Source: a virus (taxonomy: Duplodnaviria > Heunggongvirae > Uroviricota > Caudoviricetes). Taken from it: a DNA stretch of 47,886 bases. The stretch lies in IMG/VR virus record IMGVR_UViG_2563366951_000006, one strand, 5' to 3'. The translations under genes were made by a program, and so were the position numbers. The notes beneath the pieces were generated by a model, which did not search any database, was not told the origin of the DNA, and saw nothing but the letters and a program-made list of their open reading frames with translations. This document shows, in pieces, positions 1 through 47,200 of this stretch (within the stretch, counting starts at the first letter, position 1; each line of letters starts with the position of its first letter).

Positions 1-483
1 ATGACGAAGAAAAAAGCACATAAACCTGGTTCAGCGACCATCGCGCTTAACAAGCGCGCCCGTCACGAATACTTTATCGAAGAAGAGTTCGAAGCGGGAC
101 TTGCCCTGCAAGGCTGGGAAGTTAAATCCCTGCGCGCAGGAAAAGCCAATATCAGCGACAGCTATGTCCTTCTGCGTGACGGAGAAGCGTTCCTGTTTGG
201 CGCAAACATCACGCCAATGGCAGTGGCCTCCACGCATGTGGTGTGCGATCCTACCCGTACCCGCAAGTTACTTCTCAACCAGCGCGAACTGGACTCATTG
301 TACGGTCGCGTCAATCGAGAAGGCTATACCGTAGTGGCGCTCTCCCTGTACTGGAAAAATGCCTGGTGCAAAGTGAAAATCGGCGTCGCCAAAGGTAAGA
401 AACAGCACGATAAACGTTCAGATATCAAAGAGCGCGAATGGCAGGTGGATAAAGCGCGTATCATGAAAAACGCCCACCGTTAA
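1..483 (+). CDS. smpB: SsrA-binding protein SmpB (trans-translation)
   Basis: 160-aa ORF recognised over full length as enterobacterial SmpB ([25 protein letters not shown]...); sits directly upstream of the tmRNA gene. Confidence 0.96.
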
Positions 484-697
484 ACCTGCACTCCAATTAT
501 TGACCAGTTCCTCACCGCGCCTCCCTCTCCGGCGGCGCGAATGAACATCTTATTGGCTATCACATCCGACACAAATGTTGCCATCCCATTGCTTAATCGA
601 ATAAAAATCAGGCTACATGGGTGCTAAATCTTTAACGATAACGCCATTGAGGCTGGTCATGGCGCTCATAAATCTGGTATACTTACCTTTACACATT

Positions 698-1060
698 GGG
701 GCTGATTCTGGATTCGACGGGATTTGCGAAACCCAAGGTGCATGCCGAGGGGCGGTTGGCCTCGTAAAAAGCCGCAAAAAATAGTCGCAAACGACGAAAA
801 CTACGCTTTAGCAGCTTAATAACCTGCTTAGAGCCCTCTCTCCCTAGCCTCCGCTCTTAGGACGGGGATCAAGAGAGGTCAAACCCAAAAGAGATCGCGT
901 GGAAGCCCTGCCTGGGGTTGAAGCGTTAAAACTTAATCAGGCTAGTTTGTTAGTGGCGTGTCCGTCCGCAGCTGGCAAGCGAATGTAAAGACTGACTAAG
1001 CATGTAGTACCGAGGATGTAGGAATTTCGGACGCGGGTTCAACTCCCGCCAGCTCCACCA
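698..1060 (+). ncRNA. ssrA: tmRNA (SsrA), 363 nt
   Basis: Starts GGGGCTGATTCTGGATTCGACGGG; internal tag-peptide frame ANDENYALAA-stop at about 787..819; tRNA-like 3' end GGGTTCAACTCCCGCCAGCTCCACCA. Confidence 0.95.
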
Positions 1061-1065
1061 CTTTT
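1026..1065. repeat. attL core: 40-bp direct repeat (1 mismatch) of the ssrA 3' end
   Basis: ttcggacGcgggttcaactcccgccagctccaccactttt at 1026..1065 recurs at 42485..42524 with a single mismatch. Confidence 0.85.
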
Positions 1066-1182
1066 GATAGGACTGCAACCGGACAGTGGCAATAAAAACA
1101 GCCACTTACGGACACTAACCAGACAGCATGCAGACCGAGAAAAGACAAAAATATGCACGTGAAATGCACGTGCACTTTAAAA

Positions 1183-1212
1183 GAACCCCAGATTTCACGG
1201 TCTGGGTTTTTT
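1183..1212 (+). terminator. Rho-independent terminator-like hairpin downstream of ssrA
   Basis: cccaga-loop-tctggg stem followed by a T6 tract. Confidence 0.5.
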
Positions 1213-1331
1213 CTATTTGTAACTAAGGGTAACAAATTCCCCTCCCCCTTTCGCGTCCCGCTCGCCTTGACACTGTTTATTTTTACAGTAAAAATACTGT
1301 ATGCAATCACAGTGGTTTTCCGGAGGCATTT

Positions 1332-1571
1332 ATGTTCGTTGAACTGGTTTATGACAAACGCAATGTAGAGGGGCTTGAAGGGGCCAGAGAAATTATTCTG
1401 GCCGAGCTGACGAAGCGGGTGCACCAGATTTTCCCTGATGCCGAGGTGAAAGTGAAGCCGATGCAGGCAAACGGCCTGAATAGCGATGCCAGTAAAAGCG
1501 ATCGGGAAAAGCTGAACCGCATGCTGGAGGAGATGTTTGAAGAGTCGGATCATTGGTTAAACAATATTTAA
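1332..1571 (+). CDS. DinI-like protein
   Basis: 79-aa ORF with the DinI-family pattern (EL..R....FPD.E..V, C-terminal acidic segment ending DHW). Confidence 0.65.
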   Translation: MFVELVYDKRNVEGLEGAREIILAELTKRVHQIFPDAEVKVKPMQANGLNSDASKSDREKLNRMLEEMFEESDHWLNNI

Positions 1572-1665
1572 ATTCAATCTGTTAACGGCTAAGGAATATT
1601 TTTAGGAATATTTTGTTGTCATTTTTGTTGTTGATGGTACTCTTATCATTATCATCAATAACAGA

Positions 1666-2286
1666 GTGCGAGTTATGTCCCTTATCTCTAAAGAAGAAGC
1701 ATTGCTGGAACTTGAACCCTATTTCCCTCTGTTGCGAAAAGCTGTACATGCTGCATGGAACTCTTGGGTTACGGGTCCAATAGCACCTCGCATGCAGCAC
1801 AAGCGCGTCCGTGCAAATCTCGTATGGAATGATTATTTTTTCGAGATGATAAAAGAACTTTCAACAGGTGAACACAAAGGCATTAGGTTTGCAAAAATAC
1901 CTTATAATCAAGGGTTTGCAGTTAATGACAGATTCTTCATTAAGTTTAAAAAGGCAGACTCCAACTTCCTTTCCTCCAACCTTCAGACTCAATCAGCTAT
2001 GAAATATCATGACCCAGAGATTGATATGTTTGGCGGAGAAGTTCGCTTAGAGTTGCTGTATGTTTTAGACGATGATGGGATCAACATTGACAAAATTGCA
2101 ATTGTTCAAAGAAAAGACAAATTTGTCGCTTGGGCAATAGATATTGAAGGCGATAATGTTGCTGAAATTCCTCATACATTTGAACCAAGCACAACCGAGA
2201 CAGCTAAAACTGTCGCGAAAAAAGTTATCAAACCTCGCAAACATGCAAAAGAAAACGTGGTAAACAAAGATGGCACAAATTCCTGA
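1666..2286 (+). CDS. Hypothetical protein (206 aa), upstream partner of the HTH-ImmA gene
   Basis: AT-rich ORF; alternative ATG at 1675; 3' end overlaps the next ORF by 17 bp, suggesting translational coupling; no family recognised. Confidence 0.55.
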   Translation: MRVMSLISKEEALLELEPYFPLLRKAVHAAWNSWVTGPIAPRMQHKRVRANLVWNDYFFEMIKELSTGEHKGIRFAKIPYNQGFAVNDRFFIKFKKADSNFLSSNLQTQSAMKYHDPEIDMFGGEVRLELLYVLDDDGINIDKIAIVQRKDKFVAWAIDIEGDNVAEIPHTFEPSTTETAKTVAKKVIKPRKHAKENVVNKDGTNS

Positions 2287-3355
2287 ATCTCTCTCTTTGA
2301 TTAGAAATGAGATGATCGAGCTTCGCCGCAGAATGCTTGGAATCAGCCAAAAAGTTTTATCAGAAAAAGTGGGAATGTCCCAAGGAACCCTTTCGAAGAT
2401 AGAACAGGGACTTAAAGCTGTAACACCAGAACAAGCTCAGAAACTTTCTGAGGCATTATCATGCCCACTAAGTTTTTTTACGATGTCAGAACGCTTATAC
2501 GGTGGGCCAATCAGCGCGGCTCCAATGTATAGAAAAAAAGCATCTGTGGGTATAAAGGTTTTAGATCGCCTCATAGCAGAGATTAATGTACGAATAGCTC
2601 ACATTAGAAAACTTCTTCAGTTCGTTGATTTTGAACCAGAGTTTGAATTACCTTCATATGATCCTGACGACTACAACGGTGATGCGACTGAAATTGCAAG
2701 AAATACGCGAAAAAGTTGGTATATGCCCGCAGGTCCGGTGAAAAACTTGATCGAGGTTCTTGAAAGAGCTGGATGCTTAATAATCGAGTGTGACATGGAT
2801 GACACTGGCTTATCTGGGGTTAGCTACAACCTTCCAGGATTACCACCGATTATTTTCATCAACAGAAATCAGCCCCTTGACAGATATCGTTTTACACTAG
2901 CGCACGAGCTTGGCCATTTAGTCATGCATAAATCGCCCAATCCAAACATGGAGAGCGAAGCTGATGCTTTCGCAGCAGAATTTTTAATGCCTGCACGTGA
3001 CATATCTCCCTATCTTCGTGATATGAGCATTGAAAAAGCTGCAACCTTGAAGCCTTACTGGAGAACCTCAATGGCCTCCGTAATTTTCAGAGCCAAAACT
3101 TTAGGATATTTAAATCAGGGACAAAATGAATATATCTGGCGTCAGATGTCTGCACGCGGATACAGACTCAATGAACCAGTACAATTATCTCCTGATAATG
3201 AAAAGCCAACATTGTTAAAAGAGATATTTGAACACGTCAAACAAGAGCTTGATTATGACGAAAGCGAATTATCGCAAGTATTCTCAATACATTATGATGA
3301 AATAGAACAACTTTACCCTATTAACAAAAAAACTGGCTTAAGATTAGTTAAATAG
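2270..3355 (+). CDS. XRE-family HTH fused to ImmA/IrrE-type zinc metallopeptidase (COG2856-like)
   Basis: N-terminal HTH (ISQKVLSEKVGMSQGTLSKIEQG); C-terminal HEXXH motif (LAHELGHLVMH) with downstream EADAFAAEFLMP. Confidence 0.8.
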   Translation: MAQIPESLSLIRNEMIELRRRMLGISQKVLSEKVGMSQGTLSKIEQGLKAVTPEQAQKLSEALSCPLSFFTMSERLYGGPISAAPMYRKKASVGIKVLDRLIAEINVRIAHIRKLLQFVDFEPEFELPSYDPDDYNGDATEIARNTRKSWYMPAGPVKNLIEVLERAGCLIIECDMDDTGLSGVSYNLPGLPPIIFINRNQPLDRYRFTLAHELGHLVMHKSPNPNMESEADAFAAEFLMPARDISPYLRDMSIEKAATLKPYWRTSMASVIFRAKTLGYLNQGQNEYIWRQMSARGYRLNEPVQLSPDNEKPTLLKEIFEHVKQELDYDESELSQVFSIHYDEIEQLYPINKKTGLRLVK

Positions 3356-3357
3356 AA

Positions 3358-3386
3358 CCAACCCGGCCACCGCGCCGGGTTTACTT
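3358..3386. terminator. Bidirectional terminator hairpin between convergent genes
   Basis: cccggc-caccgc-gccggg stem-loop followed by a T-rich run. Confidence 0.5.
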
Positions 3387-3389
3387 TGA

Positions 3390-3695
3390 TTATTTTTCCG
3401 GCATGTTAAGCATTTGACGCAATTTTTTATTAACTTCTTTCTTCCGTCGAGTAAACGCCTCCTCAGCATCAGCCTTTCGTTCCTTGTCTCTTAGCTTGGT
3501 CGGCTCAACTTCCACTGCTAACAAAGCAGCCTGACAATCTTCTTTCGTAAACAGATAGGGTGATTTTGGCCTGTCGCTTACCCGGTAGGCTTTGAGCCTG
3601 CCTTCAAGAACCCATTTAGTCACTGTGGCCGTCGAGATACCCAGCAATTCAGCAACTTCCTTTCTCGTCATTGTAAGTCTATCCATATCATTCAA
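3390..3695 (-). CDS. Excisionase/AlpA-type HTH DNA-binding protein
   Basis: LTMTRKEVAELLGISTATVTKWVLEGRLKAYRV matches the excisionase-family HTH pattern; basic C-terminal tail. Confidence 0.65.
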   Translation of the reverse strand: MNDMDRLTMTRKEVAELLGISTATVTKWVLEGRLKAYRVSDRPKSPYLFTKEDCQAALLAVEVEPTKLRDKERKADAEEAFTRRKKEVNKKLRQMLNMPEK

Positions 3696-3737
3696 CCTAA
3701 ATCACGCCCTACGATTAAGCCTTATTGACTCAAAACG

Positions 3738-4118
3738 TTATACCCCTTTAGATTTCCATGTTTTTATCTCAAACAAAACAGCGCAATCTCCTTCGTCATT
3801 CCAAACTGCAGAATTTACCCCCCAAAAAAGAGTAAACCTTTTCCCACCCTTGTTTCTGTCCGGTATTATATTTTTACCTGGCCGCGTATATAAAATAATT
3901 TCATCACCTTTTTTAGCATCATAAGAAGGCATCCAATAAGAATGCCTTAGCTTTGACGAAATATAACCATCATCTGTATAAGTTGTGTCCTGGAGCAGGT
4001 AATATTGCAATTTGCAATCTTCAATCACGTCCAAAACCACAAACTCTTCTTTCGCATCCCCATGATTATGGATACTTCTTATGCTTACTTTCATATTAAC
4101 ACCTCGCTTTTTAATCAA
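3738..4118 (-). CDS. Hypothetical protein (126 aa)
   Basis: AT-rich ORF upstream of and co-directional with the AlpA-like gene; no recognisable motif. Confidence 0.45.
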   Translation of the reverse strand: MIKKRGVNMKVSIRSIHNHGDAKEEFVVLDVIEDCKLQYYLLQDTTYTDDGYISSKLRHSYWMPSYDAKKGDEIILYTRPGKNIIPDRNKGGKRFTLFWGVNSAVWNDEGDCAVLFEIKTWKSKGV

Positions 4119-4173
4119 TCTTAGAGAGGTATTAGCTCTGAAACAACAAGGTTTTACGTGACTGTGGTCACGA

Positions 4174-4740
4174 CTAGGTAGTTTTATTAGCTGGAAACTT
4201 CTTATAAAGAGTGCATACCGCTACATCATAAATAATTGCCACCTGCTTCCTGTTCATGCCATTCGCAATCAGTCGGCCCGCCTGGTCCCATTGTTCTTGA
4301 GTAAGCTTCGGACGCCTGCCGCCTATCCGCCCTTTCTCCCGAGCTGCAGCCAGGCCTGCCCGGGTGCGCTCAACAATCAACTCTCTTTCCATTTCCGCCA
4401 GTGCTGACATGATGTGAAATATAAAACGCCCCATTGGGCTGGAAGTGTCGATGCTGTCAGTAAGGCTCTTGAAGTGAATGCCACGTTGTCGGAGTTCGTC
4501 CACCAGCAATACCAGGTTCCTCATGCTTCGCCCGAGGCGATCCAGCTTCCAAACAACCAGCGTATCCCCCTCCTTCAGCGTTCGCAGAAGCTTTTTAAGC
4601 GCTGGCCGGTTCGCTACCGTCCCGCTCATTTTTTCCTCAAAAACCTGTTCACATCCTGCGCGTTCGAGAGCTTGCCGCTGAAGATCAGTATTTTGGTCAT
4701 TTGTTGACACCCTTACATAGCCAATTTGCATATTTTTCAC
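4174..4740 (-). CDS. Serine DNA invertase, Gin/Pin/Hin/Cin family
   Basis: MQIGYVRVSTNDQNTDLQRQAL...VWKLDRLGRSM...YDVAVCTLYKK is near-collinear with Mu Gin; catalytic Ser in the VRVSTNDQ motif. Confidence 0.92.
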   Translation of the reverse strand: MKNMQIGYVRVSTNDQNTDLQRQALERAGCEQVFEEKMSGTVANRPALKKLLRTLKEGDTLVVWKLDRLGRSMRNLVLLVDELRQRGIHFKSLTDSIDTSSPMGRFIFHIMSALAEMERELIVERTRAGLAAAREKGRIGGRRPKLTQEQWDQAGRLIANGMNRKQVAIIYDVAVCTLYKKFPANKTT

Positions 4741-4797
4741 CCAATAAATTCTGCAAAAAAATCAGGTGAAGTTATCGGCCAGGCCGCTCAAGAGCAA

Positions 4798-4821
4798 TCT
4801 ATAAAACGTCGGTTTAGGAAG
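4798..4821. other. gix/hix-like recombination site (left boundary of invertible segment)
   Basis: tctataaaacgtcggtttaggaag; inverted copy of the site at 6347..6370; resembles Mu gix TTCCTGTAAACCGAGGTTTTGGATAA. Confidence 0.6.
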
Positions 4822-4861
4822 CAGCGCCACGAAGGACGTCGGAACGGCGGCCGGAAACGTC

Positions 4862-5602
4862 ATGCAAGTGGGAGCATTTGGGCTTGGAACTATCAACGGA
4901 GACGGCCCACTGTTGGACGCTATGGACGCATTTACACCGACCTGTTTCTCCTCCCATCAAAATGACGGGATGACCCAGCTTGGGTTAACTGCAAATACCG
5001 GTATTACGTCTATAGTCGTCAATCGGGGCAGCCGACCAACCCGTATTCATCAGGCCTACATTCTAAGGCGGACGTGGTTTTCGTATTACGGTGGTTCGTC
5101 CTGGTCATATCAGGAGGCTTACACCACGGGCAATACCACAAAGTCCAGCGATGGTACCCTGAAGGCTGCGTCTCCGGTTGCGCGCATAGTGACGAGTCGG
5201 GATGCATGCCAGCGCGCTGACGTAGCCGAAGATGGTTTCTCCTGGTGCGGCTGTGGGACAGCAAACGCAGAGGCGGAGGGCATAACCCTTTCTCGCCTTG
5301 AGGCGGGCGTTTACCTGCTGACAGGTGCAGCAGGACTGGCTTCAGAGGGATGGCAGCTACTGCCACCGATGGACCCTGGTGGAATGGGAGAACTTGGCGT
5401 GGTTGAAGCTGAGCAGACGGAAAGCGGAGGCCTGACAATCCGTCTTTTCAAGCAAAAATACATCCTGAGCGGTGAAGGTGAGATCATTAAAACCAAAGGT
5501 GAACCGATGGACGTGCCGGCGAACAGTTGGATCGATGTTCGCCTGGATATGCCATCTGATTCTCTGTTTAACCAGCGGATGAATCAGGAACTTCAGCCAT
5601 AG
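4862..5602 (+). CDS. Tail-fibre variable C-terminal cassette A (inside invertible segment, currently opposite to the tail operon)
   Basis: Frame is open from the gix site (NVGLGSSATKDVG...); shares motifs with cassette B (SDGTLKAASPV, DMPSDS.FNQR). Confidence 0.55.
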   Translation: MQVGAFGLGTINGDGPLLDAMDAFTPTCFSSHQNDGMTQLGLTANTGITSIVVNRGSRPTRIHQAYILRRTWFSYYGGSSWSYQEAYTTGNTTKSSDGTLKAASPVARIVTSRDACQRADVAEDGFSWCGCGTANAEAEGITLSRLEAGVYLLTGAAGLASEGWQLLPPMDPGGMGELGVVEAEQTESGGLTIRLFKQKYILSGEGEIIKTKGEPMDVPANSWIDVRLDMPSDSLFNQRMNQELQP

Positions 5603-6221
5603 CCTTGCGCTGATTCCAGATACTGTCCTGCGGCATCTGAACACGTACAGAGACAAATTGGTCAGAAGGGATGTCTATCGGCTCGCCATCGCTGACACCC
5701 TGTAGCTCGTTCCTGGCGAACTCTGGTGCTTCAGGATGTGTGCGGTGAAAGGTTTTCACTAACACCGATCCGTCAGCATGAACCTCATAATCCAGCCATA
5801 TCAGAGGCTGCTTGTTGCGGTCGGTGGGAATATCAAAACCGCCATCAATGCCGCCCCAGGCAGCGTCAGAGTTAAGCCCTTCACATCCTTCAATCAGATA
5901 TTCACCGATGGTCAGACGGGTTACGGTGCAGCCTTCAGATTCGTCATTAGTCTGGTATGCGCCATCTGTAAACACTTTGACCACAGGCGATGCTGCTTTA
6001 ATGCTGCCATCTGATGCAACTGTAGTGTTTGCAGTCGTGTATACCTTTTTCCAAGTGTATTGGCCTCCTTGATTGTGAGTAGTCTGAATATATGCTTTTC
6101 CATCATTAGACCAAACGAACCATGAAAAAGATGGGGCACCATCATACTGCAACTGCAGCCCGACTCCTCCACCTCCGGGGGAGTTGATCGTTGATGTTGT
6201 ATACCTACCAAATCCAAGCAC
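5568..6221 (-). CDS. Tail-fibre variable C-terminal cassette B (inside invertible segment, co-directional with the tail operon)
   Basis: GTG start at 6221; same frame stays open upstream through the gix site to 6371 (KVGLGDAATRGV...); homologous to cassette A. Confidence 0.55.
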   Translation of the reverse strand: MLGFGRYTTSTINSPGGGGVGLQLQYDGAPSFSWFVWSNDGKAYIQTTHNQGGQYTWKKVYTTANTTVASDGSIKAASPVVKVFTDGAYQTNDESEGCTVTRLTIGEYLIEGCEGLNSDAAWGGIDGGFDIPTDRNKQPLIWLDYEVHADGSVLVKTFHRTHPEAPEFARNELQGVSDGEPIDIPSDQFVSVRVQMPQDSIWNQRKAMAEVPDSSAG

Positions 6222-6346
6222 ACTCGTATCTGAAAAGTTTTCAATATGTCGCGGATTTCCCAGTCCAATAGCTCCTACAGTAGGGAGAGTATTGTGGCCA
6301 ATGCCCGGAGAGATTTTATCGCTGGTTACTCCCCTTGTGGCCGCAT

Positions 6347-6370
6347 CTCCTAAACCGACCTTTAAAATAT
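6347..6370. other. gix/hix-like recombination site (right boundary of invertible segment)
   Basis: ctcctaaaccgacctttaaaatat; shares cctaaaccgac with the reverse complement of the site at 4798..4821. Confidence 0.6.
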
Positions 6371-6410
6371 TTCACGATCCGATATGCTAGGCCGGTTCCT
6401 CTTCTGCATT

Positions 6411-7547
6411 TCACCCTTTGCTATTGTTTAAATTTTCTCCACTGCTCATTTCGTCGATTTGGAGTTTCAACCCTTTTACAGCAGCAATCAGATAGCCGAT
6501 CAGCCCCATATAATCGGCAACAAGATAATCTGTTGCTTCATCATGAATAACCAGGTCGGGAATCACTAAATCGAGATCTTGCGCAAGCGCGCCAGCGGTT
6601 AATCTCTTTGAATCTGCATTCTTATAGCGGAACGTGTAACCATCAAGCGCGGCTATCTTTTCCAGAGCCTCCGCAGGCTCGATAATGTTCACTTCCTCTT
6701 TCGCGTTCCAGTCTGACGTTAGAGTAACGCCGTTCGCCTGAACTGCACCCTTCGCGTTTATCGTCCCGTTACGAGTGTTTATGAACACCGCAGGTTTCCC
6801 GGCAACCACGCCATTTACTGGCTTGTTGTATGCAGTACAGAAGCCGATTCCGTACCAACTGACAATGTTGATGTTGGACATTGCTTCGAATGAGGCTGTG
6901 TCAGTACCTGCTTCAATAGCCCCGAACCCTCCAATTGCTACCCCGGATGATGTATCACTTGCCGCTGCAGGGATACGGATAGCAGCCGATGCAAACAAAG
7001 ATTCCCCATTCACCATGAATCCACTGACAATGACATTATTTGAATCCTGAGTAGCCAAGCTTCCTAAACCGAGGTTTTTGCGAGCGTCTTCTGCCTTCGT
7101 TGCCCCGGTCCCGCCGTCAGCGATTGCAAGCGCACCATTGCTCCCTTTCTGCGCAAGTTTACCGATGCCTGGGATGGTTACGGCGGTGCCGTTGATGGTA
7201 ACTGTGATGCTTTGGTTTGCTGAGGTGGTGGCGAACGTCTCCCACGCGCCAATATTCTCGTCATATTCTTTGATGAGCTGCGACATTGCCTGGGCCAGTC
7301 CGTCGACGGAGATAATGTCTGACACCAGAATGGCGTATTTCTGGCCGCTCAGCGCCGGAGAAGCTGCAGGCGTAATCGTCATTGACGTGGCGCTATTCAC
7401 GGATGAAATCTGGAACATCTGAACCGGGTTAGACATGACAATAATCGTCTGGCCAGCGCGAACCTGGCTGGCCGGTGCAGTCCAGTTTGTACCGGAGCCG
7501 GTTGCGGTATTTCCGTTAATAGAGATAGTTCCGGTGCTATAAATCAT
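6411..7547 (-). CDS. Tail fibre protein with C-terminal intramolecular chaperone (peptidase S74-like) domain
   Basis: C-terminus SDWNAKEEVNIIEPAEALEKIAALDGYTFRYKN...YMGLIGYLIAAVKGL matches the auto-cleaving chaperone domain of phage fibres; RBS aggag upstream. Confidence 0.8.
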   Translation of the reverse strand: MIYSTGTISINGNTATGSGTNWTAPASQVRAGQTIIVMSNPVQMFQISSVNSATSMTITPAASPALSGQKYAILVSDIISVDGLAQAMSQLIKEYDENIGAWETFATTSANQSITVTINGTAVTIPGIGKLAQKGSNGALAIADGGTGATKAEDARKNLGLGSLATQDSNNVIVSGFMVNGESLFASAAIRIPAAASDTSSGVAIGGFGAIEAGTDTASFEAMSNINIVSWYGIGFCTAYNKPVNGVVAGKPAVFINTRNGTINAKGAVQANGVTLTSDWNAKEEVNIIEPAEALEKIAALDGYTFRYKNADSKRLTAGALAQDLDLVIPDLVIHDEATDYLVADYMGLIGYLIAAVKGLKLQIDEMSSGENLNNSKG

Positions 7548-7624
7548 AACAACTCCTAAATTTAGACAACATGAAGCCCGGAGAGGTATATAACCCTCAC
7601 CAGAAATAATTTCTGAATTGGTTT

Positions 7625-7971
7625 TTAATACATGTTGGGCAACGCCAGTGTTGGCATAGCTATAGTTGTATCAAATGCCATTGACCACCCACCCAAATAA
7701 TAATTGCCGACTACTTTATTCCTTTCTGCTCTGACATTCCCACCTGTCATTACAATTCCTTTATACCTAATATTTCCGTAACCACCAACGTGTCGACAGT
7801 TAGCCCCGGTATAAACAATCTGGCAAAATTCATCACCAATATTCAGGTTCGCATTGGCGATATTTATTGTCCCATCAAAAATGAATGGCTTCGTGCAAGT
7901 AAGAAGACGTTTGCGTTGACGATTGGTTTATTCAATCCATCAACTAAAATACCATGTAAACGAATTGCCAT
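7625..7971 (-). pseudogene. Side-tail-fibre (Stf)-like N-terminal fragment, apparently interrupted
   Basis: ATG at 7971 encodes MAIRLHGILVDGLNKPIVNANVFL, which resembles the lambda Stf N-terminus as I recall it (MAVKISGVLKDGTGKPVQNCTIQL); stop after 35 codons, open frame continues in another phase to 7625. Confidence 0.4.
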
Positions 7972-8052
7972 AACATTTCCCACTTTATTTTACTTACTCA
8001 ACACAACAAGTATATTAAAATTGAACCTTGTCAACAACACAAAGGAGTCCCA

Positions 8053-19730: not shown

Positions 19731-20078
19731 TCAGGGGATAACTTTAAAATCCAGGGTGGCACGGTAGAGCCGATAATCTGGCTCGTAACCGGGGATTTTT
19801 ACCACCTCCGTAGGGTTTAAGGGCTTAAGCGAAGCGAGCGCCAAATCTCTCAGGGTGCGTGATTCAGTGATCGTAGTGGAATACACATCTACCTGAATGG
19901 AAACCCTGCTCTCTGCCTGGCCACACAGCACGTCAGCGGAAACATCATCGACGATGGAAAAGATAATCCAGGGTGGAGAGACAGACGGTTTTCCGTCACT
20001 ACCTAATGGCGCAACGTAGGGATATACCCGCCCTTCTGCCAGGGGAGAAAGCAAAGCGTAGATATCATCTTCATTCAC
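19731..20078 (-). CDS. Tail completion / neck protein (DUF3168-like)
   Basis: 115 aa; position in the HK97-type head-tail joining block. Confidence 0.5.
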   Translation of the reverse strand: MNEDDIYALLSPLAEGRVYPYVAPLGSDGKPSVSPPWIIFSIVDDVSADVLCGQAESRVSIQVDVYSTTITESRTLRDLALASLKPLNPTEVVKIPGYEPDYRLYRATLDFKVIP

Positions 20079-20524
20079 TTGCTCAACACCTCATCAATAG
20101 CCTGATTCATCCTAGCAATGGCGACGCTGGCGGCCTCTTCCTCGCGCGTATCGTAAGCGGGTCGCACAAAAGGATGCGCAGGCATGTTCGCAGTGCCAAT
20201 CTCCACAAAGCGCCAGTAAAAGGCGTTTCTCGGGTTACTCGCCTTCATTGTGTTATCGCTGTTCCCGGTGCGCGGGTTAACACCACGAATATGGACGCCG
20301 GAAGAAATTTCCCCGCGGCGACGGCTTTTTTGGGTCACCACCACCACGTTTTTTTTCAGTTTCCCGGTACGCACGGGAGCGCGGGCGATCACTTCTTCCT
20401 TAAGCACTTCGGCTCCAGCGCGCGTTGCATCACGCAAAACCTTGTTGTTTTCGGCACGGCTCAGTAATTCCAGATCGCGGGATATCTCTTCAAGGCCAGA
20501 AAAATCAAGACTGATATCAATCAT
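20075..20524 (-). CDS. HK97 gp10-family tail component
   Basis: APVRTGKLKKNVVV...FVEIGT pattern typical of the gp10 family. Confidence 0.7.
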   Translation of the reverse strand: MIDISLDFSGLEEISRDLELLSRAENNKVLRDATRAGAEVLKEEVIARAPVRTGKLKKNVVVVTQKSRRRGEISSGVHIRGVNPRTGNSDNTMKASNPRNAFYWRFVEIGTANMPAHPFVRPAYDTREEEAASVAIARMNQAIDEVLSK

Positions 20525-30778: not shown

Positions 30779-30853
<75 letters not shown>

Positions 30854-30856
30854 ATA

Positions 30857-30932
<76 letters not shown>

Positions 30933-30934
30933 AG

Positions 30935-31008
30935 TGGTCCGCCACCGGAGCCTCGAACCCCGTACCACAACACCTGGGTTGCCGCTCTTCCCGATGAGCT
31001 AGTGGCGG
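30935..31008 (-). tRNA. tRNA-like gene with non-canonical anticodon arm (anticodon unassigned)
   Basis: Perfect acceptor (CCGCCAC/GTGGCGG), D and T arms; best anticodon-arm fold is GCAAC/GTTGT around a 6-nt loop CCAGGT. Confidence 0.5.
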
Positions 31009-31010
31009 TC

Positions 31011-31087
31011 TGGTGGCCCTTGCTGGACTTGAACCAGCGACCGGGCGATTATGAGTCGCACGCTCTAACCAACTGAGCTAAAGGGCC
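31011..31087 (-). tRNA. tRNA with CAT anticodon, Ile2-like (lysidine) or Met
   Basis: Manual fold: anticodon loop CTCATAA; resembles enterobacterial ileX as I recall it. Confidence 0.75.
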
Positions 31088-35396: not shown

Positions 35397-36380
35397 TCAT
35401 GGGCGATACCCGCCACGGTTCATGCGATCGATCGCTGACTGATTGATAAACACCTCGGCAGAGCCGTCATCAGACTTTGCGTACCACTCGTAGCGAGACT
35501 GGTCTTGTCGGGTAGGGACTTTGTTTTCCTGGGTCTCTACCAGCCACGGTTCATCGAAATGTTTATCCGGCCCGAAGAACGTCGCCGCCTGCTTGACGAA
35601 CGAAGTACCGATCTTTCCCTCAGAGGCCATGAAAGCTGCGTAGCGCTTAACCCCTTCCAGCATCGTCTCTGGTTTTACGCCCTGTTTAATACGTGCGTTC
35701 CAGGCTTTGAATGCGCTTAGCTTGTTATTTCCACCGCTACGTTTTGGGTATGCCTGCCAGGCTTCTTCAAATGCAGGAGAATAATCAGTTGAAGATTTCA
35801 CTTTCGGTGTGTCGGCTTCAGCCGATGCACCAAGATATTTATTCTCTGTATTAATCTTCTGTGTAGTCTCCTGGTAATCTACTGTATGAATGGATGCGGA
35901 ATTTCCACATGACTGCTCGTTGGTTTTCCCCATACCTGCATGCTGGTTTTCCGCATCACTGTTTGCGGAAATTCCGCATCCTTGTTTGTTGGTTTTCCCC
36001 ATACCTGCATGCTGGTTTTCGCCAAGTAGAAGTTCTTCCAAGCGCTCCTGGTTTACTCTGAAATATAATTTTGCTGGGATGCCACGTTTTGCTTCTTCCA
36101 GTACGCCACAGGAAACCAGCTTTTTACGCGCTCCCTCTTGTTCGTAACGCGTTAATCCAGTCTCTTCTTCGAGATCTGTCTGGGTTTTGTAGAACCAATT
36201 CCCTTCCATGCGGTTCTGCCAATAGACAATCTGTGACAATAGCAATGCACCTGTAATACCCACGCCAAGGCGAACGAAGGACCGTTGAAAGGCTATTGGA
36301 CGATCAACGAGCTGTAAGAAATTGCTCACTCCACAACCCTCCTGAAATAATTTTGAAACTTCCAGACAGGCTGCATGCAT
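35397..36380 (-). CDS. Replication initiation / replisome organiser protein
   Basis: N-terminal winged-helix-like region; internal tandem protein repeat ENQHAGMGKTN encoded by iteron-like DNA repeats. Confidence 0.65.
   Translation of the reverse strand: MHAACLEVSKLFQEGCGVSNFLQLVDRPIAFQRSFVRLGVGITGALLLSQIVYWQNRMEGNWFYKTQTDLEEETGLTRYEQEGARKKLVSCGVLEEAKRGIPAKLYFRVNQERLEELLLGENQHAGMGKTNKQGCGISANSDAENQHAGMGKTNEQSCGNSASIHTVDYQETTQKINTENKYLGASAEADTPKVKSSTDYSPAFEEAWQAYPKRSGGNNKLSAFKAWNARIKQGVKPETMLEGVKRYAAFMASEGKIGTSFVKQAATFFGPDKHFDEPWLVETQENKVPTRQDQSRYEWYAKSDDGSAEVFINQSAIDRMNRGGYRP
35891..36021. repeat. Iteron-like tandem direct repeats plus 15-bp palindrome (candidate origin)
   Basis: 33-bp perfect repeat gttggttttccccatacctgcatgctggttttc at about 35919 and 35989; palindrome tgcggaaattccgca at 35964..35978. 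Confidence 0.6.
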
Positions 36381-36863: not shown

Positions 36864-37553
36864 ATGGACATAAAAAGCATACGCAAATCAAACCTTGAGC
36901 AGCTCATTGTTGAGTTCCTGAAGCGCGACAGACATACGACAAAAGCAGCTTTCGCAGAATTGTGCGGGATAAGCCCTGCCCAGTTGAGCCAGTTGCTTGG
37001 GGGCAATAGCCATCGAAACATAGGGGACAAAATGGCCAGAAAGATTGAACAGGCCTTGGATCGTCCGTTTGGGTGGCTGGATAGTCCACACAATGCTCCT
37101 GGCAGTATTAAAAGCGAGTTGGAGTATGTCGGATCAGTCCGTCCGGGAGCTGTACCAGTTGTAGGGGAAGCGATTCTTGGGATTGACGGAATGATCGATA
37201 TGCTAGAGATCCACGCTGGATGGCTACAAATATACAGCGCGGATAGGGATGCCTATGGGCTGAAAGTGAAGGGAGACAGCATGTGGCCACGCATACAGTC
37301 TGGAGAATATGTCGTCATAGAGCCAAACACCCAAGTTCATACAGGTGATGAGGTTTTTGTGCGAACAAAAGATGGGCATAACATGATAAAAATCATGAGT
37401 AAAACTCGCGATGGCGATTATCAATTCTCAAGTGTAAACAGTGATCACAGGCCCATCACCTTAAGTCCTGATAGCATCGAGAAAATGCATTTTGTTTCAG
37501 CTATTGTTAAGCATACGCGTTATGTTGACAATGATGAAATGCCCGCCCTGTAA
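36864..37553 (+). CDS. cI: Prophage repressor, CI-like (HTH + S24 LexA-type peptidase)
   Basis: N-terminal HTH (TKAAFAELCGISPAQLSQLL); C-terminal S24 motifs (KVKGDSMWP ... EVFVRTKDGHNMIKIM). Confidence 0.9.
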   Translation: MDIKSIRKSNLEQLIVEFLKRDRHTTKAAFAELCGISPAQLSQLLGGNSHRNIGDKMARKIEQALDRPFGWLDSPHNAPGSIKSELEYVGSVRPGAVPVVGEAILGIDGMIDMLEIHAGWLQIYSADRDAYGLKVKGDSMWPRIQSGEYVVIEPNTQVHTGDEVFVRTKDGHNMIKIMSKTRDGDYQFSSVNSDHRPITLSPDSIEKMHFVSAIVKHTRYVDNDEMPAL

Positions 37554-40749: not shown

Positions 40750-41034
40750 ATGAATAAGCCAGTTTCAGAAATTATTAAGCGTTGGACCCGTCTGGCAACG
40801 AAGGCCAAGCAGCTGGGGCTCACCACCATCCCTGTCGACCCGGAAAACATGCTGATGCTCGTGGGAGATCTGCCAGCCAGTGAAGACTATCAGGCTGCAA
40901 TCGATTTTTTGCGCAAGAGAGCGGCCAGCGAACTTGATGGCGGTTTTAGAGCGCACCACAACGCACTTATCTATGCGGCAAATGAACTGGAAAATGCCCA
41001 GGCATTCGGGCGGGAGGTCGGTCATGAGTCTTGA
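40750..41034 (+). CDS. Hypothetical protein
   Basis: 94-aa ORF upstream of xis. Confidence 0.45.
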   Translation: MNKPVSEIIKRWTRLATKAKQLGLTTIPVDPENMLMLVGDLPASEDYQAAIDFLRKRAASELDGGFRAHHNALIYAANELENAQAFGREVGHES

Positions 41035-41233
41035 TTGCGTACCACTTTCAACCTACTGCCGGGACGCCGGAGAAACGGTTGAAGCCGTTAACAAACGGAT
41101 ACAAAGGGGGTTATGGAAAGAGGGTGTCCATGTATTAAAAGTCGATGGCGTTAAAGAACGCTGGATAGACTTAACGGAGGTTTCAAAGTGGGCAAGAAAG
41201 AACAAGGATCATTATCTCTCCCAAGAGGAGTAA
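41024..41233 (+). CDS. xis: Excisionase (Xis-like)
   Basis: ATG at 41024 with RBS gggagg; 69-aa basic protein overlapping the int start by 46 bp, as in lambda xis-int. Confidence 0.55.
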   Translation: MSLDCVPLSTYCRDAGETVEAVNKRIQRGLWKEGVHVLKVDGVKERWIDLTEVSKWARKNKDHYLSQEE

Positions 41234-42360
41234 CCATTCGCCAGCATAAAACTGGCGACACCCTGGTGATCACATTCACCTACAAGGGGGTTCTCTGCCG
41301 GGAGCCCCTTTCCAGAATGGAAGCAAACGCGCGCGGCGTGAAGTATGCCGAGCGCCTGCTGGGGGAGATACAGAATCAGATCGCCGGCGGCACATTCGAT
41401 TATGCGAAATACTTCCCCACCTCCAAAAAACTGGAGCTGTTCGGGGTAGTGAAGAAAACCAAAAATATTAAGTCCTACCTGGACGAGTATCTGAAAATCT
41501 GCCAGAACCGCAACCTTTCGCCGTCCACTATTGGCGGTTATGAAAAGTGCCTGTCTGCGCTATCTGCGCTGCACAAAATGCATGTATCGGAACTGACCCC
41601 TGCGGTCCTCAAAAACTGGATCGCCAGCAGAAAAACAAAGCTGAAAACAATCAGGAATAACCTCTCGTTTCTGCGCAGCGCCATAGATGAAGCGGTGACA
41701 GACGGCCTGCTGACTATCAACCCGGTAACCCTTGTCAGCGCGAGTCGGTACCACGTGATCGACAGCAGCCCGAATAGTGACGATTACGAAGTTGATCCGT
41801 TCACACCAGCGGAAATCAGCGCCATTTACCAGAGCTGCAGTTATCCGGAATGGGAAAACCTGTTCCGTTTCGCATTCAATACAGGTTTACGCAGCTCTGA
41901 GCTGTGTGCGTTGCGCTGGCCTGATCTCGACAATATCGCTAAAACAGCTCACGTTCAGGCGGCGAGTGTTGTTGGCGTTCTGAAAGGCACCAAAACAAAA
42001 GCCGGTACCCGTAAAGTAGAATTAAACAGCGAGGCGCTGGCCGCGCTGCAGGCGCAGAAACAATTCACTTTCATGAAAAGCGAGTTTATTTTCAGCGACC
42101 CTAAAACGGGAGAGCCCTGGGCGAACGCCGACGCAATACGAAAAAAAGCATGGGTGCCAACCCTCAAAAAAGCTGGCGTTCGATACCGTAACCCGTACCA
42201 GACCCGCCACACATTCGCCACCAGACACATTAGCCAGGGCGTAAACCTTTTCTGGCTTGCCGGGCAGATGGGGCATAAAGGGCCGGAAATGCTGTTCCGC
42301 AATTACGGTAAATACCTGGCTGAATACGACGGGAAAACCGCCATTTCAGCAGCTCTGTAG
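41188..42360 (+). CDS. int: Tyrosine integrase (prophage)
   Basis: 390 aa; C-terminal catalytic region with RHTFATRHISQG...HKGPEMLFRNYGKY (R-H-R-Y signature); adjacent to attR. Confidence 0.9.
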   Translation: MGKKEQGSLSLPRGVTIRQHKTGDTLVITFTYKGVLCREPLSRMEANARGVKYAERLLGEIQNQIAGGTFDYAKYFPTSKKLELFGVVKKTKNIKSYLDEYLKICQNRNLSPSTIGGYEKCLSALSALHKMHVSELTPAVLKNWIASRKTKLKTIRNNLSFLRSAIDEAVTDGLLTINPVTLVSASRYHVIDSSPNSDDYEVDPFTPAEISAIYQSCSYPEWENLFRFAFNTGLRSSELCALRWPDLDNIAKTAHVQAASVVGVLKGTKTKAGTRKVELNSEALAALQAQKQFTFMKSEFIFSDPKTGEPWANADAIRKKAWVPTLKKAGVRYRNPYQTRHTFATRHISQGVNLFWLAGQMGHKGPEMLFRNYGKYLAEYDGKTAISAAL

Positions 42361-42484: not shown

Positions 42485-42524
42485 TTCGGACACGGGTTCA
42501 ACTCCCGCCAGCTCCACCACTTTT
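42485..42524. repeat. attR core: second copy of the ssrA 3'-end repeat
   Basis: ttcggacAcgggttcaactcccgccagctccaccactttt. Confidence 0.85.
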
Positions 42525-42594: not shown

Positions 42595-42684
42595 TTGTCG
42601 TCCAGTGAGAATTGCTGAGAACTATCACATATGGCACCCTGAATGGGACCCACTAAGAAGGGTCCAAAAACCGAGGGTCCCAAA

Positions 42685-43914
42685 ATGGCAAAAATCGCTA
42701 AGAAGCTCACTGACACTGAAATCAAAAGCACCAAACCAGCCGACAAAGAAATCAACTTGTTTGACGGAGATGGTTTGATACTACGAATCGCTCCCCTCTC
42801 GAAAGGAGGAAAGAAGAATTGGTATTTCAGGTATGCAGTGCCAGTGAGTAAAAAAAGAACCAAAATGAGCCTTGGGACCTATCCTCACCTTACACTGGCA
42901 AGAGCCAGAGCCTTACGAGATGAATACCTTTCCTTGCTTGCTAATGGCATTGATCCCCAAGTTCATAACAACGATAAAGCTAATGCCTTAAAGAATGCTA
43001 CTGAACACACTCTCCAAGCCGTGGCAAGGAAATGGTTGGATGAGAAGGTAAAGACCTCTGGTATCTCACAAGACCATGCAGAAGACATCTGGCGAAGCTT
43101 GGAGAGAAATATATTTCCCGGCTTGGGTAAGGTTCCTATCAATGAGATCCGACCCAAACTCTTAAAGCAACATCTCGACCCTATTGAGCAACGAGGAGTC
43201 CTCGAAACCTTACGGCGAATCATTTCCCGATTAAATGAAATATTTCGCTGGGCCGCGACTGAAGAACTTATCGAGTTCAATCCGGCTGACAACCTTGGGC
43301 AACGGTTCAGTAAGCCTAAAAAACAGAATATGCCAGCATTACCCCCTTCCGAGTTACCCCGCTTCCTAATGGTGTTAAACAATGCCTCAGTTCGTATGGA
43401 GACAAGATTGCTGATTGAATGGCAATTGCTGACCTGGGTTCGTCCAGGGGAAGCCGTTCGTGCGAGATGGGCCGATATAGATACTGAAAAATCGATGTGG
43501 AACATCCCGGCTGAGTTTATGAAAATGAAGAAGCCTCACAAAGTTCCACTAAGCAAAGAAGCTTTGCGAGTCTTGGATTCAATGAAAGCCATCAGTGGGC
43601 ACAGAGAGTGGGTTTTCCCCAGTATCAAAGCTCCACTCAATCATATGCATGAACAAACAGCGAATGCGGCCATAATCCGTATGGGCTTTGGTGGAGAGCT
43701 TGTAGCCCATGGAATGAGATCTATTGCACGAACGGCCTCAGAGGAGTCGGGTAAGTTCAGGACAGATGTCTTAGAAGCGGCCCTTGCTCACTCGAAGAAA
43801 GATGAAATAATTGCCGCATATAATCGCGCAGATTATCTTGCAGAACGAGTGGTTCTCATGCAGTGGTGGAGTGATTATGTGCAAGCTCAAAGGCTAAAAG
43901 CCATTGCAGCTTAA
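42685..43914 (+). CDS. P4-type (CP4-57 IntA-like) tyrosine integrase
   Basis: N-terminus KLTDTEIKSTKPADKEINLFDGDGLILRI typical of P4-family integrases; start taken at internal ATG (track ORF from 42643). Confidence 0.88.
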   Translation: MAKIAKKLTDTEIKSTKPADKEINLFDGDGLILRIAPLSKGGKKNWYFRYAVPVSKKRTKMSLGTYPHLTLARARALRDEYLSLLANGIDPQVHNNDKANALKNATEHTLQAVARKWLDEKVKTSGISQDHAEDIWRSLERNIFPGLGKVPINEIRPKLLKQHLDPIEQRGVLETLRRIISRLNEIFRWAATEELIEFNPADNLGQRFSKPKKQNMPALPPSELPRFLMVLNNASVRMETRLLIEWQLLTWVRPGEAVRARWADIDTEKSMWNIPAEFMKMKKPHKVPLSKEALRVLDSMKAISGHREWVFPSIKAPLNHMHEQTANAAIIRMGFGGELVAHGMRSIARTASEESGKFRTDVLEAALAHSKKDEIIAAYNRADYLAERVVLMQWWSDYVQAQRLKAIAA

Positions 43915-44238
43915 TAATTAAAAAACACATAATAAACAAAGGTAATTACTAGGATTGCATCTCTATTTTCAACGAACAACTTAGAACCATACACCCAGCA
44001 TTAACCAATTAAAGCCCTGTTTTAGCTTCTGAGATTAAGCAATAGCTGGTCAAATAATTTCAGAAGCTTTTTTTTTGATCCAAACCAAACAACACTACTT
44101 AACTCATTGTATATATTGTTTTTTTATGTTAGCAATAAATACAATGTACAGCATACATGCATATGTTGGGGCGGTAGCATTTAAATGTACAATTCTCATC
44201 CGTAAAGTTCACACAGCATTTATGAATAAGGTTGGTCT

Positions 44239-47200
44239 ATGAGTGAAAATAAACTGTTTGATAATTATGAGATTATAGAAAGAAATCTACTAAAAACAGA
44301 ATCAAATAGAAATATTCCTGAAGTAATTCTTACCCTTAAAGATGGAGAGAGTTACATTATCAAACATTGGCCAAGAAATACCTCAAGTGATGAACAAGTT
44401 CTTGAAAGTATTTGGCAACATGAATTACGACAACTACAAAGGTTAAAGGGATATCCTGGAGTAGGAGATTATATAGTAAATCCTGTTGAATCAAAAAAAA
44501 CAAATGAAGGGTACTATCTTGTTTTAAATTCTGATGGTAGAGTACCTACTTCTTACTTATTGAATAAAAGAACATTATCTCTCCCAAGAAAAAGCCACTG
44601 GCTCACCCGTTTAAAAGATCCGGCAGTTAGAATCAGATTCTGGAAAAATATCTGTAGAATTACAAATGCTATTGGTTTGCTTCATGCGCAAGGGTTGTTA
44701 CATCGACATTTAGATGAAAATTCAATTCTAACATATGATTATGAATCAGATGATTATAACGATTTTCAATTGACCGGCTTCGAGTGGTCAATCCGAATGC
44801 CTACACTTACCAGAGCTAAAATTGAGCCTGTTGGTGAACACGGTAAAATATCAACTTTTGCTACAGATTGGATCGATTTAGGAATTTTAATAGCAAACTT
44901 TTTAAAAATAGATATAAATGAAATTAAATCTCTGCAGTTCCCAGCAGAATACTTCATTTCTAAGTACGATCTGACAATTAGTGAAGTAGCTATAATTCGT
45001 AGTCTATTAGGAATCCAACCTATTCAGCAAAATGCTATAAAAGAACTTCTTGGTGAAAAAGATATTCTACAGTTTTTAGATGGTATAATTGATGAGCTTA
45101 CTGAATTCTATAAAAAAACGAAAACTATTCATGGGTTAGCAATAAACACTAAGTATGAACAATCTGATAATACCAAAGATAAAAAAGAGCTATTTCACTG
45201 CATACAAAAAATAATCTTTGAGAAAAGTGAATTCACAATATCCAGAGATGACTCTGATATAATAAAGAGTTTCGTAAGCGAAGATTTATCAGATTCACCA
45301 GTATTATTTGTTAATACCTCAGAACACAATCGATATGATGTAGTATTGAAAGGGAAAGAACTTTTTTATGTACTAACACCATTTCAACCTGACCATCGAA
45401 CGAGTGACAAAACATGGGATTTAGGTTATTCACAATATGCATATTTAGAGTTGCCAAATAGATTCTTTGGTAAAGATAATTACATTGAACTAAATAGTAA
45501 TAATATATCATGTTATACTCATTACGAAGCCAGGAAATTTTTGAATAGTAATGATAACTCATTAAGCCTACTGTCTTGGGAAATGATTTTCAAAGATATA
45601 GGTAAAACTAAAAACAAAAGAAATGAAGAACATCTTCGATTATTGGAGGGCCTAACTGCCGTTCATATTACAAATATCGCATATGCAAAAGCAGAAATTT
45701 TCCCTGTAGAAAACATCAGTGAAGAAAGCGAACCAGATAATATTAGCTCATGGATCTTTAAATTCATTCCCAAATTTGACGAAACAACGGAGGAACTGTC
45801 TAAGTCGCTAAGTATCGACTCACCATCTGTCAGGCTTGAAAAGATTATAAATAGTAGTGAAAACAACGATAAGGTATCCTGGAGTTTAGTAGACAATAAT
45901 GATTTCAGTAGAGTTGACGAAGAGATTCTTTTAGAGTTTTATGGCTATGAAACAGATCAAGACAATCAAGAAATATATAGCTTCATCTCTAAAAAACCTC
46001 TTCCAGAATGGAGGAATTTTTATATTGTTCCCGACTCGATTGAAGGAACTCTGCGCCAAATAACAAGACATGCAAATACATTGGATATGCTTGAAAATCA
46101 TATCGAATTGATGAATGTAATTACTTCCCCTAATTCAAATCTCACAGTAAGCAATGAAGATATAATTGCAAAAGATATAATGGACTCATTGGATGAATCT
46201 AAACAAAGAGTTTTTACAAAAGTATTATCAACATTGCCAATGAACCTTGTACAAGGTCCACCGGGAGTAGGTAAAACTCACTTAGTCAAAGCAATTTCTA
46301 AATTTATCTTTAAAGAAGAACCTAATAGCAGGATACTCTTTACCGCACAGAGTCATGCAACCGTTCAACATCTATATCACGAAGTTGTCAAAGATTTACT
46401 TACTGAAAACAAACATACAAATGATCCCATAATTATTAGATGCAACAAAATATCTGGCGAAGATAATATAATATTAAACAGTGCCGATGAAACTGGATTA
46501 GAATATTTGCGGAAGTTCGTAGAAAGCCCTTTATACAAAAACTCTTCCAATCAAAGTTTAAAAAGTAATATTTCCAGTTTGCTTAAAGCTCCTCCAGTAA
46601 AGAGATACCCACTAATTAATCAACTAATTAAATCAGCAAGCTTAATATTTGCTACAACTAATTCAGATTATGTAGAGAGAATGATAAAAGAAAGAGCACA
46701 ATTTGATTGGTCGATCATGGAAGAAAGTGGAAAGGTTACAGGTATAGAATTAATAAGCCCACTTTTATTATCCTACCGACGATTAATGATCGGTGATCAC
46801 AATCAATTGCCACCGTATCGTTCAATTGAGTTAAGAAACATTTTAACCAATAATACAAAACTTAAAAACACCTTTGAAGAAGTTGACAGCATAAGTAATT
46901 TTAAATTAAAAAATGAACTAATGCGTAATAGTCACTTTTCATCAATAACCGATGATCAAGCAAGAGAAATAGGATTACGGGCAGCCAAATATGTAAATCT
47001 ATTTGAATCTCTTATTATTGATGATGAAAGACAAGACGTAATGTATGAAAAAATAAAGGGAAAAGATTATAAAAGAAACAATAAATTATCCTCAATGCTG
47101 TCAGTCCAGCACCGTATGCATCCTCATATTGCAGAAGTGATTTCAAATGTTTTTTATAACAACAAATTAGTTACCGATAAAGATAAAGAAAGGAAGTATC

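Follow-up and report, generated by a model that had tools for sequence, protein, structure and literature searches.

A predicted free-standing lamin tail domain protein and an excisionase-family protein encoded in the accessory arm of a lambdoid prophage at ssrA

This report concerns two small minus-strand genes in a 47,886-nucleotide (nt) stretch of viral DNA (IMG/VR record IMGVR_UViG_2563366951_000006, Caudoviricetes), the whole of which we call the window. The upstream gene (3738-4094) encodes a 118-amino-acid (aa) protein that we model as a free-standing lamin tail domain (LTD), and the downstream gene (3390-3686) encodes a 98-aa winged-helix protein of the HTH_17/excisionase family (HTH, helix-turn-helix); LTD and HTH are used below for both genes and products. 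Their host element is a lambdoid prophage integrated at ssrA in Escherichia coli, where they occupy the arm that runs from the tail fibres to the attachment site and corresponds to lambda's non-essential b region. We consider it probable that LTD and HTH are two independent accessory genes, chance neighbors in this non-essential arm. HTH was present in only about six of the 66 LTD loci (L003-6, L016 and the window) and LTD in only four of the 27 HTH loci, the two occurring together in just two lineages; with about 60 LTD loci thus lacking HTH, and 23 of the 27 HTH loci lacking LTD, we conclude that they are not a functional pair. The sequence-only reading of this region had taken them for an operon. 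As a transcript this may hold, since the gap between them is only 51 nt and the conserved DNA of HTH begins at its ATG, leaving no promoter of its own, so that the genes are probably co-transcribed in the window; as a functional unit it does not.

Two coding genes in a mosaic block

As had been reported from sequence, two co-oriented minus-strand open reading frames (ORFs; 3390-3695 and 3738-4118) adjoin and lie downstream of a serine invertase gene (4174-4740, minus strand), and are convergent with a plus-strand gene for an Xre-HTH plus M78 peptidase protein (2270-3355). The 126 aa originally credited to the first product, counted from TTG 4118, must be shortened: the true start is ATG 4094, with a GAGGTG ribosome-binding site in front, giving 118 aa, and all 24 homologues (117-122 aa) begin MK. 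The true start of HTH is ATG 3686 (98 aa), exactly where DNA homology with every relative sets in. Both exact proteins are present in public annotation, recorded on 136 (LTD) and 99 (HTH) contigs labelled E. coli; neither gene was found by DNA search in 5,426 complete E. coli genomes, a result that reflects that collection rather than species-wide absence. The ratio of nonsynonymous to synonymous substitution rates (dN/dS) against relatives was 0.07-0.13 for LTD and 0.04-0.11 for HTH, and both are genuine coding genes under purifying selection. On the strength of these values for the minus-strand frames we discounted a plus-strand ORF antisense to both genes (3592-3924, 110 aa). Their AT-richness, also remarked on earlier, is real: G+C content (GC) is 36.7% for LTD and 45.1% for HTH, vs. 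50.1% for the rest of the prophage.

No terminator lies between the two genes. Beyond HTH is a G+C-rich hairpin (3360-3381) that scores as an intrinsic terminator on both strands, is present in the minimum-free-energy fold, and is common to HTH and the convergent RmrA-type gene (the Xre-HTH plus peptidase gene above); the HTH stop codon is 8 nt from it on one side and the stop codon of the plus-strand gene 5 nt from it on the other. Every relative keeps this terminator together with the HTH ORF, and homology ceases at ~3361, so that the conserved DNA unit of HTH is its ORF plus terminator only (3686-3361).

Similar breakpoints recur throughout the region. Phage LLS and CX21-type E. coli prophages have the SOS-response gene dinI directly beside the invertase and lack ~1580-4170. 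Locus L105 shares 3686-1332 at 95% but is without invertase and LTD, and L014 shares 4855-3738 but is without HTH, the break falling at the LTD stop codon, 3738. More generally, L008/9, L014/15, L067 and L069 all have invertase plus LTD but no HTH, and in each the homology runs no further than the LTD stop codon. Sharp breakpoints thus separate invertase plus LTD, HTH plus terminator, a pair of genes resembling RosmerTA, and the segment from dinI to the left attachment site (attL). Together with the separate occurrence of the genes, they indicate that the 1.6-4.7 kb block is, by sequence comparison, a mosaic of at least four modules and not one cassette. The earlier suggestion that the whole block had been captured as an accessory cassette accordingly survives in respect of its accessory nature (much of it is absent from LLS and CX21-type prophages), but not of its unity, and the invertase is a core gene. 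Conservation of the block as a unit with core phage functions had been named as the finding that would count against capture, and here the synteny comparison gave a split answer: the position of HTH is conserved, the RosmerTA-like part is swapped, and LTD is sporadic. The annotation should therefore be corrected from regulator-plus-cargo cassette to accessory mosaic, which is ordinary prophage content.

The invertase is of the Hin/Gin/Pin type (Resolvase, 2.4e-50; HTH_7, 5e-15; phrog_125, 4.5e-92) and is 95% identical to Fin of phage LLS, whose annotation has the same arrangement. Inverted crossover repeats at 4796-4836, 6348-6371 and 7045-7078 bracket opposed tail-fibre ORFs, so that the serine recombinase domain, the HTH_7 domain and the inverted crossover sites characteristic of this type are all found; its function is the core host-range one of tail-fibre switching. 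That there are three related repeats within 4796-7078 suggests a multiple-inversion switch rather than a simple two-state one.

The excisionase-family protein and the slot it borders

The sequence-only reading had described HTH as AlpA/excisionase-like, and the second half of that description was right. HTH matches PF12728 (36 bits, cut-off 27) and TIGR01764 (35.8 bits, cut-off 28.8), aligns across its full length with the phrog_2907 'excisionase' profile (6e-24), and is 34-48% identical to the Xis proteins encoded beside int in epsilon34, Stx phages and APSE-2 (35% over 95% of its length for epsilon34). Its AlphaFold2 (AF2) model, with a long C-terminal helix, found Pukovnik Xis (4J2N), P2 Cox (4LHF), RacA, BldC and minimal MerR regulators in Foldseek. 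The AlpA half fails: PF05930 (Phage_AlpA) gave no match to HTH at E<=0.1 or E<=0.01, and the two are related only as small prophage regulators of the MerR/Xis-like winged-helix superfamily. A true AlpA-family gene does lie divergently upstream of HTH in most relatives, and is absent from the window, where LTD stands instead, as it also does in Citrobacter. In relatives L096-L116 this AlpA-family gene (63 aa with a PF05930 match of 1.6e-14, or 74 aa with a weak match) is divergent from HTH across an intergenic region of 40-70 nt, and looks like one half of a small divergent regulatory pair.

HTH shares its winged-helix HTH_17 domain, and a full-length profile match, with the P22/epsilon34-type excisionases of phrog_2907; unlike them it is not beside an integrase, coexists with a second xis, and lies at the tail-fibre end of the prophage, convergent to a defence slot. 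The prophage's own xis (~41018-41233, plus strand; phrog_2917 excisionase, 1.1e-40) overlaps the start of its tyrosine integrase gene (41188-42360, plus strand; Arm-DNA-bind_2 and Phage_integrase domains, phrog_1) next to the right attachment site (attR), 37.5 kb from HTH. With this xis-int pair at the other end, we rejected HTH as the excisionase of this prophage. The proposal that HTH controls an integrase in the manner of AlpA-type regulators falls as well, HTH being neither AlpA-type nor placed for that role. We found 163 close HTH homologues, far more than for LTD, in Citrobacter, Salmonella, Enterobacter and E. coli. Prophages inserted at no fewer than three sites, among them ssrA, a site next to pepN and one next to an ABC-transporter locus, encode nearly the same protein (74-91% aa identity); their tails are of lambda-J, Mu or T4-wedge type, and both siphovirus and myovirus tails are represented. 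Its constancy across attachment sites makes a site-specific directionality factor unlikely, and on sequence grounds HTH appears to be an orphan Xis paralogue.

A working recombination directionality factor (RDF) is nonetheless the alternative that most needs weighing for HTH, whether as a second excisionase for this prophage or acting in trans on the P4-type island inserted in tandem with it (integrase at 42643-43914). Full-length homology to bona fide Xis proteins encoded next to integrases and the fold matches to Pukovnik Xis and P2 Cox speak for it, as do 43%-identical relatives encoded directly upstream of a 390-aa integrase-sized gene. Its location could also suit: lambda Xis binds the attachment-site arm on the side away from int, and HTH is at the ssrA-proximal end, on that side, 2.3 kb from the core. 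Against these stand the canonical xis already overlapping the int start at the other end, and a conserved DNA unit that is just ORF and terminator. RDFs normally co-vary with Int and attachment site, whereas HTH is nearly the same at the ssrA, pepN and ABC-transporter sites and across morphotypes. We judge a working RDF unlikely.

What does stay constant around HTH is its position. In all 27 loci HTH follows the tail-fibre genes and is convergent to a two-gene cassette, and in nearly all a dinI homologue lies behind the cassette. At least eight different cassettes were found between HTH and dinI, as catalogued in loci of relatives (L003-6, L096-L118) at the place equivalent to 1572-3389 in the window. 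Known types include the RosmerTA-like cassette (the window, L016, L105/6), RexA/RexB, a HipA-like (HipA_2-like) pair, an M78 peptidase with a DUF4411 protein, and an N6-methyltransferase with an S subunit; unannotated ones comprise a 238-aa protein with a PIN-like protein of 181 aa, a 320-aa protein with a 146-aa membrane protein, and a single 183-aa gene. The unannotated occupants could be new defence systems.

The cassette in the window consists of a 206-aa candidate toxin gene (1666-2286, plus strand) overlapping by 17 nt a 361-aa candidate antitoxin gene (2270-3355, plus strand), the Xre-HTH plus M78 peptidase gene that converges on HTH. The antitoxin matches 14 PADLOC RmrA models, the best at 2.9e-54 over its full length, along with Pfam HTH_3 and Peptidase_M78; an NCBIfam spr1629-type match (2.6e-32) fell below cut-off. 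No model matched the toxin, as is to be expected because RosmerTA is described as a Zn-peptidase antitoxin with a toxin of unknown function (bioRxiv 10.1101/2022.05.11.491447). The order of an RmrA-type antitoxin behind a toxin gene in one putative operon (1666-3355) is that of RosmerTA.

On the far side of the slot, the dinI homologue (1332-1571, plus strand; Pfam DinI, 2.2e-22) is preceded by a terminator (1187-1206), a TTGACA promoter element (1267-1272) and two LexA boxes, CTGT-N8-ACAG (1273-1288 and 1297-1312), read directly from the sequence. The LexA boxes are conserved across the loci, including relatives with other cassettes. Since the RosmerTA-like pair begins on the same strand 95 nt behind dinI, and no terminator was found between, the pair may be SOS-induced along with dinI. 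Gifsy prophages have LexA-controlled dinI operons (Lemire et al. 2011, PMC3121763) of the same layout, namely a terminator-like palindrome and one or more LexA boxes before dinI and further same-strand genes behind it. In Gifsy, dinI is followed by an antirepressor gene and irsA; here it is followed by swap-in defence or toxin–antitoxin (TA) pairs, in a prophage with a CI-type S24 repressor (36864-37553).

The slot also resembles prophage and satellite hotspots of antiviral systems, such as those of P2/P4 (Rousset et al. 2022, cited in PMC11364771), as well as classical phage morons, in having conserved flanks, interchangeable defence systems (the known ones here being RexAB and RosmerTA) and cargo of atypical GC. 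It differs in that its flanks are a LexA-controlled dinI and the Xis-like HTH, and that, in lambdoid prophages and in other prophages of enterobacteria, it occupies the accessory arm nearest the attachment site. No description of a dinI-bordered defence slot was found in the literature searched, coverage of which was incomplete. We propose that HTH and its terminator form the constant border of a slot that runs from the LexA-controlled dinI and takes interchangeable two-gene defence cassettes. The HTH protein would most likely bind DNA, in a regulatory or an architectural capacity, and the conserved sequence of its gene may double as a recombination anchor for cassette exchange. With RexAB, RosmerTA and unannotated pairs among its occupants, the slot is a place to look for new defence systems, and it raises the idea of prophage-borne abortive-infection systems turned on by the SOS response.

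The lamin tail domain protein

LTD had been put down as belonging to no recognisable family, which holds for direct profile scans of the window sequence: Pfam, PHROGs, PADLOC and NCBIfam gave no match, and the Pfam LTD profile does not match the protein itself even at E<=1. It does not hold for the family, since that profile (PF00932) matches 21 of the 25 aligned members (best E 2.7e-5), two of which carry a precomputed PF00932 assignment, nor for the fold. The AF2 model has seven strands at a mean predicted local distance difference test (pLDDT) score of 94.2 and a predicted template modelling (pTM) score of 0.86, and the top 14 Foldseek matches in the PDB were all lamin Ig-fold structures (lamin A/C, B1 and B2; probability 0.9-1.0, template modelling score 0.44-0.60). 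Homologues, Pfam and predicted structure together argue that the 118-aa protein is a stand-alone, single-domain beta-sandwich of the lamin tail type. Other routes yielded nothing: a PDB sequence search gave chance-level matches only (Piwi, E 0.2; LbpB), tblastn against 50,697 phage genomes no match, and a BFVD fold search none at E<0.001.

A profile search of 1.8 billion representatives returned 800 clusters (50% identity) at E<1e-10, and of the 150 best relatives almost all have lengths of 111-130 aa. Longer members proved to have miscalled starts rather than fusions, aside from one haloarchaeal protein that is a secreted multi-LTD repeat; we therefore dropped domain fusions as a clue to function. 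The fold is that of PF00932 proteins, known from nuclear lamins and from bacterial secreted hydrolases such as ExeM of Shewanella, and with these the protein shares the C-terminal WN(D/N)xGDxxxL motif and the E-x-V-x-L strand. Prokaryotic LTDs known to date are found either within multidomain hydrolases that are secreted or associated with membranes, or as tandem repeats, in a role that is not established (PMC6085458). The protein of the window does not occur in this usual context. It is free-standing at ~118 aa, has no visible signal peptide, enzyme domain or fusion partner, is on these sequence features probably cytoplasmic, is carried by mobile elements, and combines the general LTD motif (VWNDEGDxxxL in the alignment) with an invariant hairpin of its own, DTTYT...S..LRH.YW. 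It is not an acidic DNA mimic, a possibility rejected on its ~17 acidic vs. 17 basic residues.

LTD behaves as optional cargo. In enterobacteria it is always directly behind the invertase with the same 79-nt spacer, and is nevertheless missing from LLS, CX21 and L105 despite common flanks; these absences, and its low GC, are those of a moron. More distant homologues, none of them accompanied by HTH, were found beside a CI-type repressor gene in a P2-like prophage, among Tn7-like cargo with ParDE and a CBASS-like operon as neighbours, between integrase and MobA relaxase in an integrative mobilisable element, inside a defence island, and, in six loci, directly after an Rz-like spanin gene. In about 12 viral contigs LTD lies between a DUF6246-type gene and the tape-measure gene. 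This tail-module slot, in a different phage lineage (IMG/VR loci L124-L202; DUF6246-type gene to gpG-like/tape-measure genes), is hypervariable, with very diverse cargo. Across the 56 loci with both flanks the gap was 30-3194 nt, and LTD filled it in five, a count on which we rejected LTD as a conserved hotspot anchor. Other occupants are homologues of RexB/RexA, a HipA-like pair (254 + 292 aa) and a 338 + 145-aa pair, all three homologous to pairs found beside HTH in enterobacteria. All-against-all clustering and Pfam scanning of 85 neighbours at 33 diverse LTD loci gave no recurrent partner, only a general mobile-element/defence flavour. We conclude that LTD is an optional single-gene cargo, a moron, found in the company of defence systems.

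The 79-nt spacer upstream of LTD (4095-4173, minus strand), conserved in nine loci, holds candidate expression signals. It has a hairpin with an invariant stem, GTGAC-N4-GTCAC (4158-4171), and a candidate sigma-70 promoter with -35 TTGTTT (4141-4146), a 17-nt spacing and -10 TAAGAT (4118-4123). We read this promoter by eye from the alignment; it is weak (7/12 here, with the -10 being TAATAT in L008), and our consensus promoter scan did not list it. A predicted anti-Shine-Dalgarno stem pairs AAUACCUCUC with GAGGUGUU, and a consensus fold of the spacer retained both stems, with only one compensatory change. LTD would be expressed either from this weak promoter (4146-4118) or by read-through from the invertase, and in the read-through transcript the stem would occlude the Shine-Dalgarno sequence and so damp LTD translation. 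A side observation concerns the same spacer: 4141-4161 is the reverse complement, at 20 of 21 positions, of 20430-20450 within the minus-strand head-tail gene 20075-20524, the mismatch becoming a G-U pair in RNA, and the similarity stops at those 21 nt. None of 100 shuffles gave a second match, and by rough estimate ~0.03 such pairs are expected genome-wide; the two minus-strand transcripts could pair.

From its cargo behavior and its neighbors (RexAB, HipA-like kinase pairs and similar), we infer that LTD may be a conflict protein, serving exclusion, defence or counter-defence, which would bind its target stoichiometrically rather than catalytically. A fuller version, which we put forward only tentatively, is that the free-standing LTD is a single-gene phage-conflict factor (exclusion/defence or counter-defence) sequestering a phage or host component through the face that bears the DTTYT...LRH hairpin, and that, separately, the dinI-to-HTH slot is an undescribed SOS-wired defence hotspot with new defence systems among its unknown occupants. 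The stand-alone LTD family is large and uncharacterised, recurs in phage cargo slots and in defence islands, and has no entry in PHROGs, PADLOC or NCBIfam. It and the slot are modest leads, LTD being a cheap candidate for a plating screen.

The Ig-like fold invites a different interpretation, in which LTD would be expressed late, along with the tail genes, as an accessory or decoration component of the virion, and would aid adsorption in the way proposed for other Ig-like domains of phages. Its placement fits, on the late-gene strand behind the tail fibres in the window and between tail chaperone-like and tape-measure genes in those ~12 viral contigs. We nonetheless give this only a slim chance, given the 5/56 occupancy of related tail modules, the occurrences after lysis genes, beside a CI repressor, in an integrative mobilisable element and in Tn7-like cargo, those in defence islands without phage structural genes, and the lack of any match among 50,697 isolated phage genomes or in BFVD. 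That LTD and HTH are a two-gene unit captured as one cassette, such as a TA or mini defence system in which HTH regulates or neutralises LTD, is very improbable: the genes are adjacent and co-oriented across a 51-nt gap with a common terminator, HTH has no conserved promoter of its own, and the pair is intact in Citrobacter prophages (80% and 89% aa identity), but the LTD loci without HTH include 85%-identical copies behind the same invertase, HTH without LTD usually has the divergent AlpA-family gene instead, and LTD, persisting alone, is not a toxin in need of HTH as antidote.

Several points weigh against our preferred reading of two independent accessory genes and against the roles we propose for them. 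Because the genes are adjacent and co-oriented, 51 nt apart both in the window and in Citrobacter, they may have a lineage-specific functional link. Some E. coli prophages at ssrA carry dinI at this end but different content and no HTH; HTH therefore borders the slot only in a subset of phages, and may instead belong, as a constant part, to the inserted DNA. No regulatory target of HTH was found. For LTD, no experiment or database annotation gives stand-alone LTDs a function (PADLOC, PHROGs and NCBIfam being empty), and a literature search, itself incomplete, turned up no publication dealing with free-standing LTDs of phages. Guilt by association at hotspots is weak evidence, such slots also carrying non-defence morons. 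The putative spacer promoter is poor, and the predicted anti-Shine-Dalgarno stem has almost no covariation support.

Prophage setting and other features of the window

The window opens with smpB (1-483) and then ssrA (698-1060), both 100% identical to E. coli genomes; the tmRNA at 698-1060 was the sole match in an Rfam scan of 1-8000. The 3' end of ssrA forms attL (1026-1065, plus strand), a 40-nt direct repeat 98% identical to attR (42485-42524), and these repeats delimit a prophage of ~41.5 kb whose tail, head and terminase genes are on the minus strand. A second element follows in tandem at the duplicated ssrA end. Its P4-type integrase gene (42643-43914) is followed by 32% GC cargo starting with an ORF of more than 1215 aa, with AAA_11/AAA_12 helicase domains, that leaves the window at its end (47886); this tandem element (42643-47886) is likely a defence island. 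Within the prophage, four tRNA-like genes cluster on the minus strand at 30779-31087 (Gly-TCC, Thr-TGT, one with an odd anticodon loop, and Met-CAT). Inside a 327-aa ORF (35397-36380), four tandem repeats at 23-nt spacing plus one inverted copy (35886-36020) look like the iterons of a replication origin within a replication gene.

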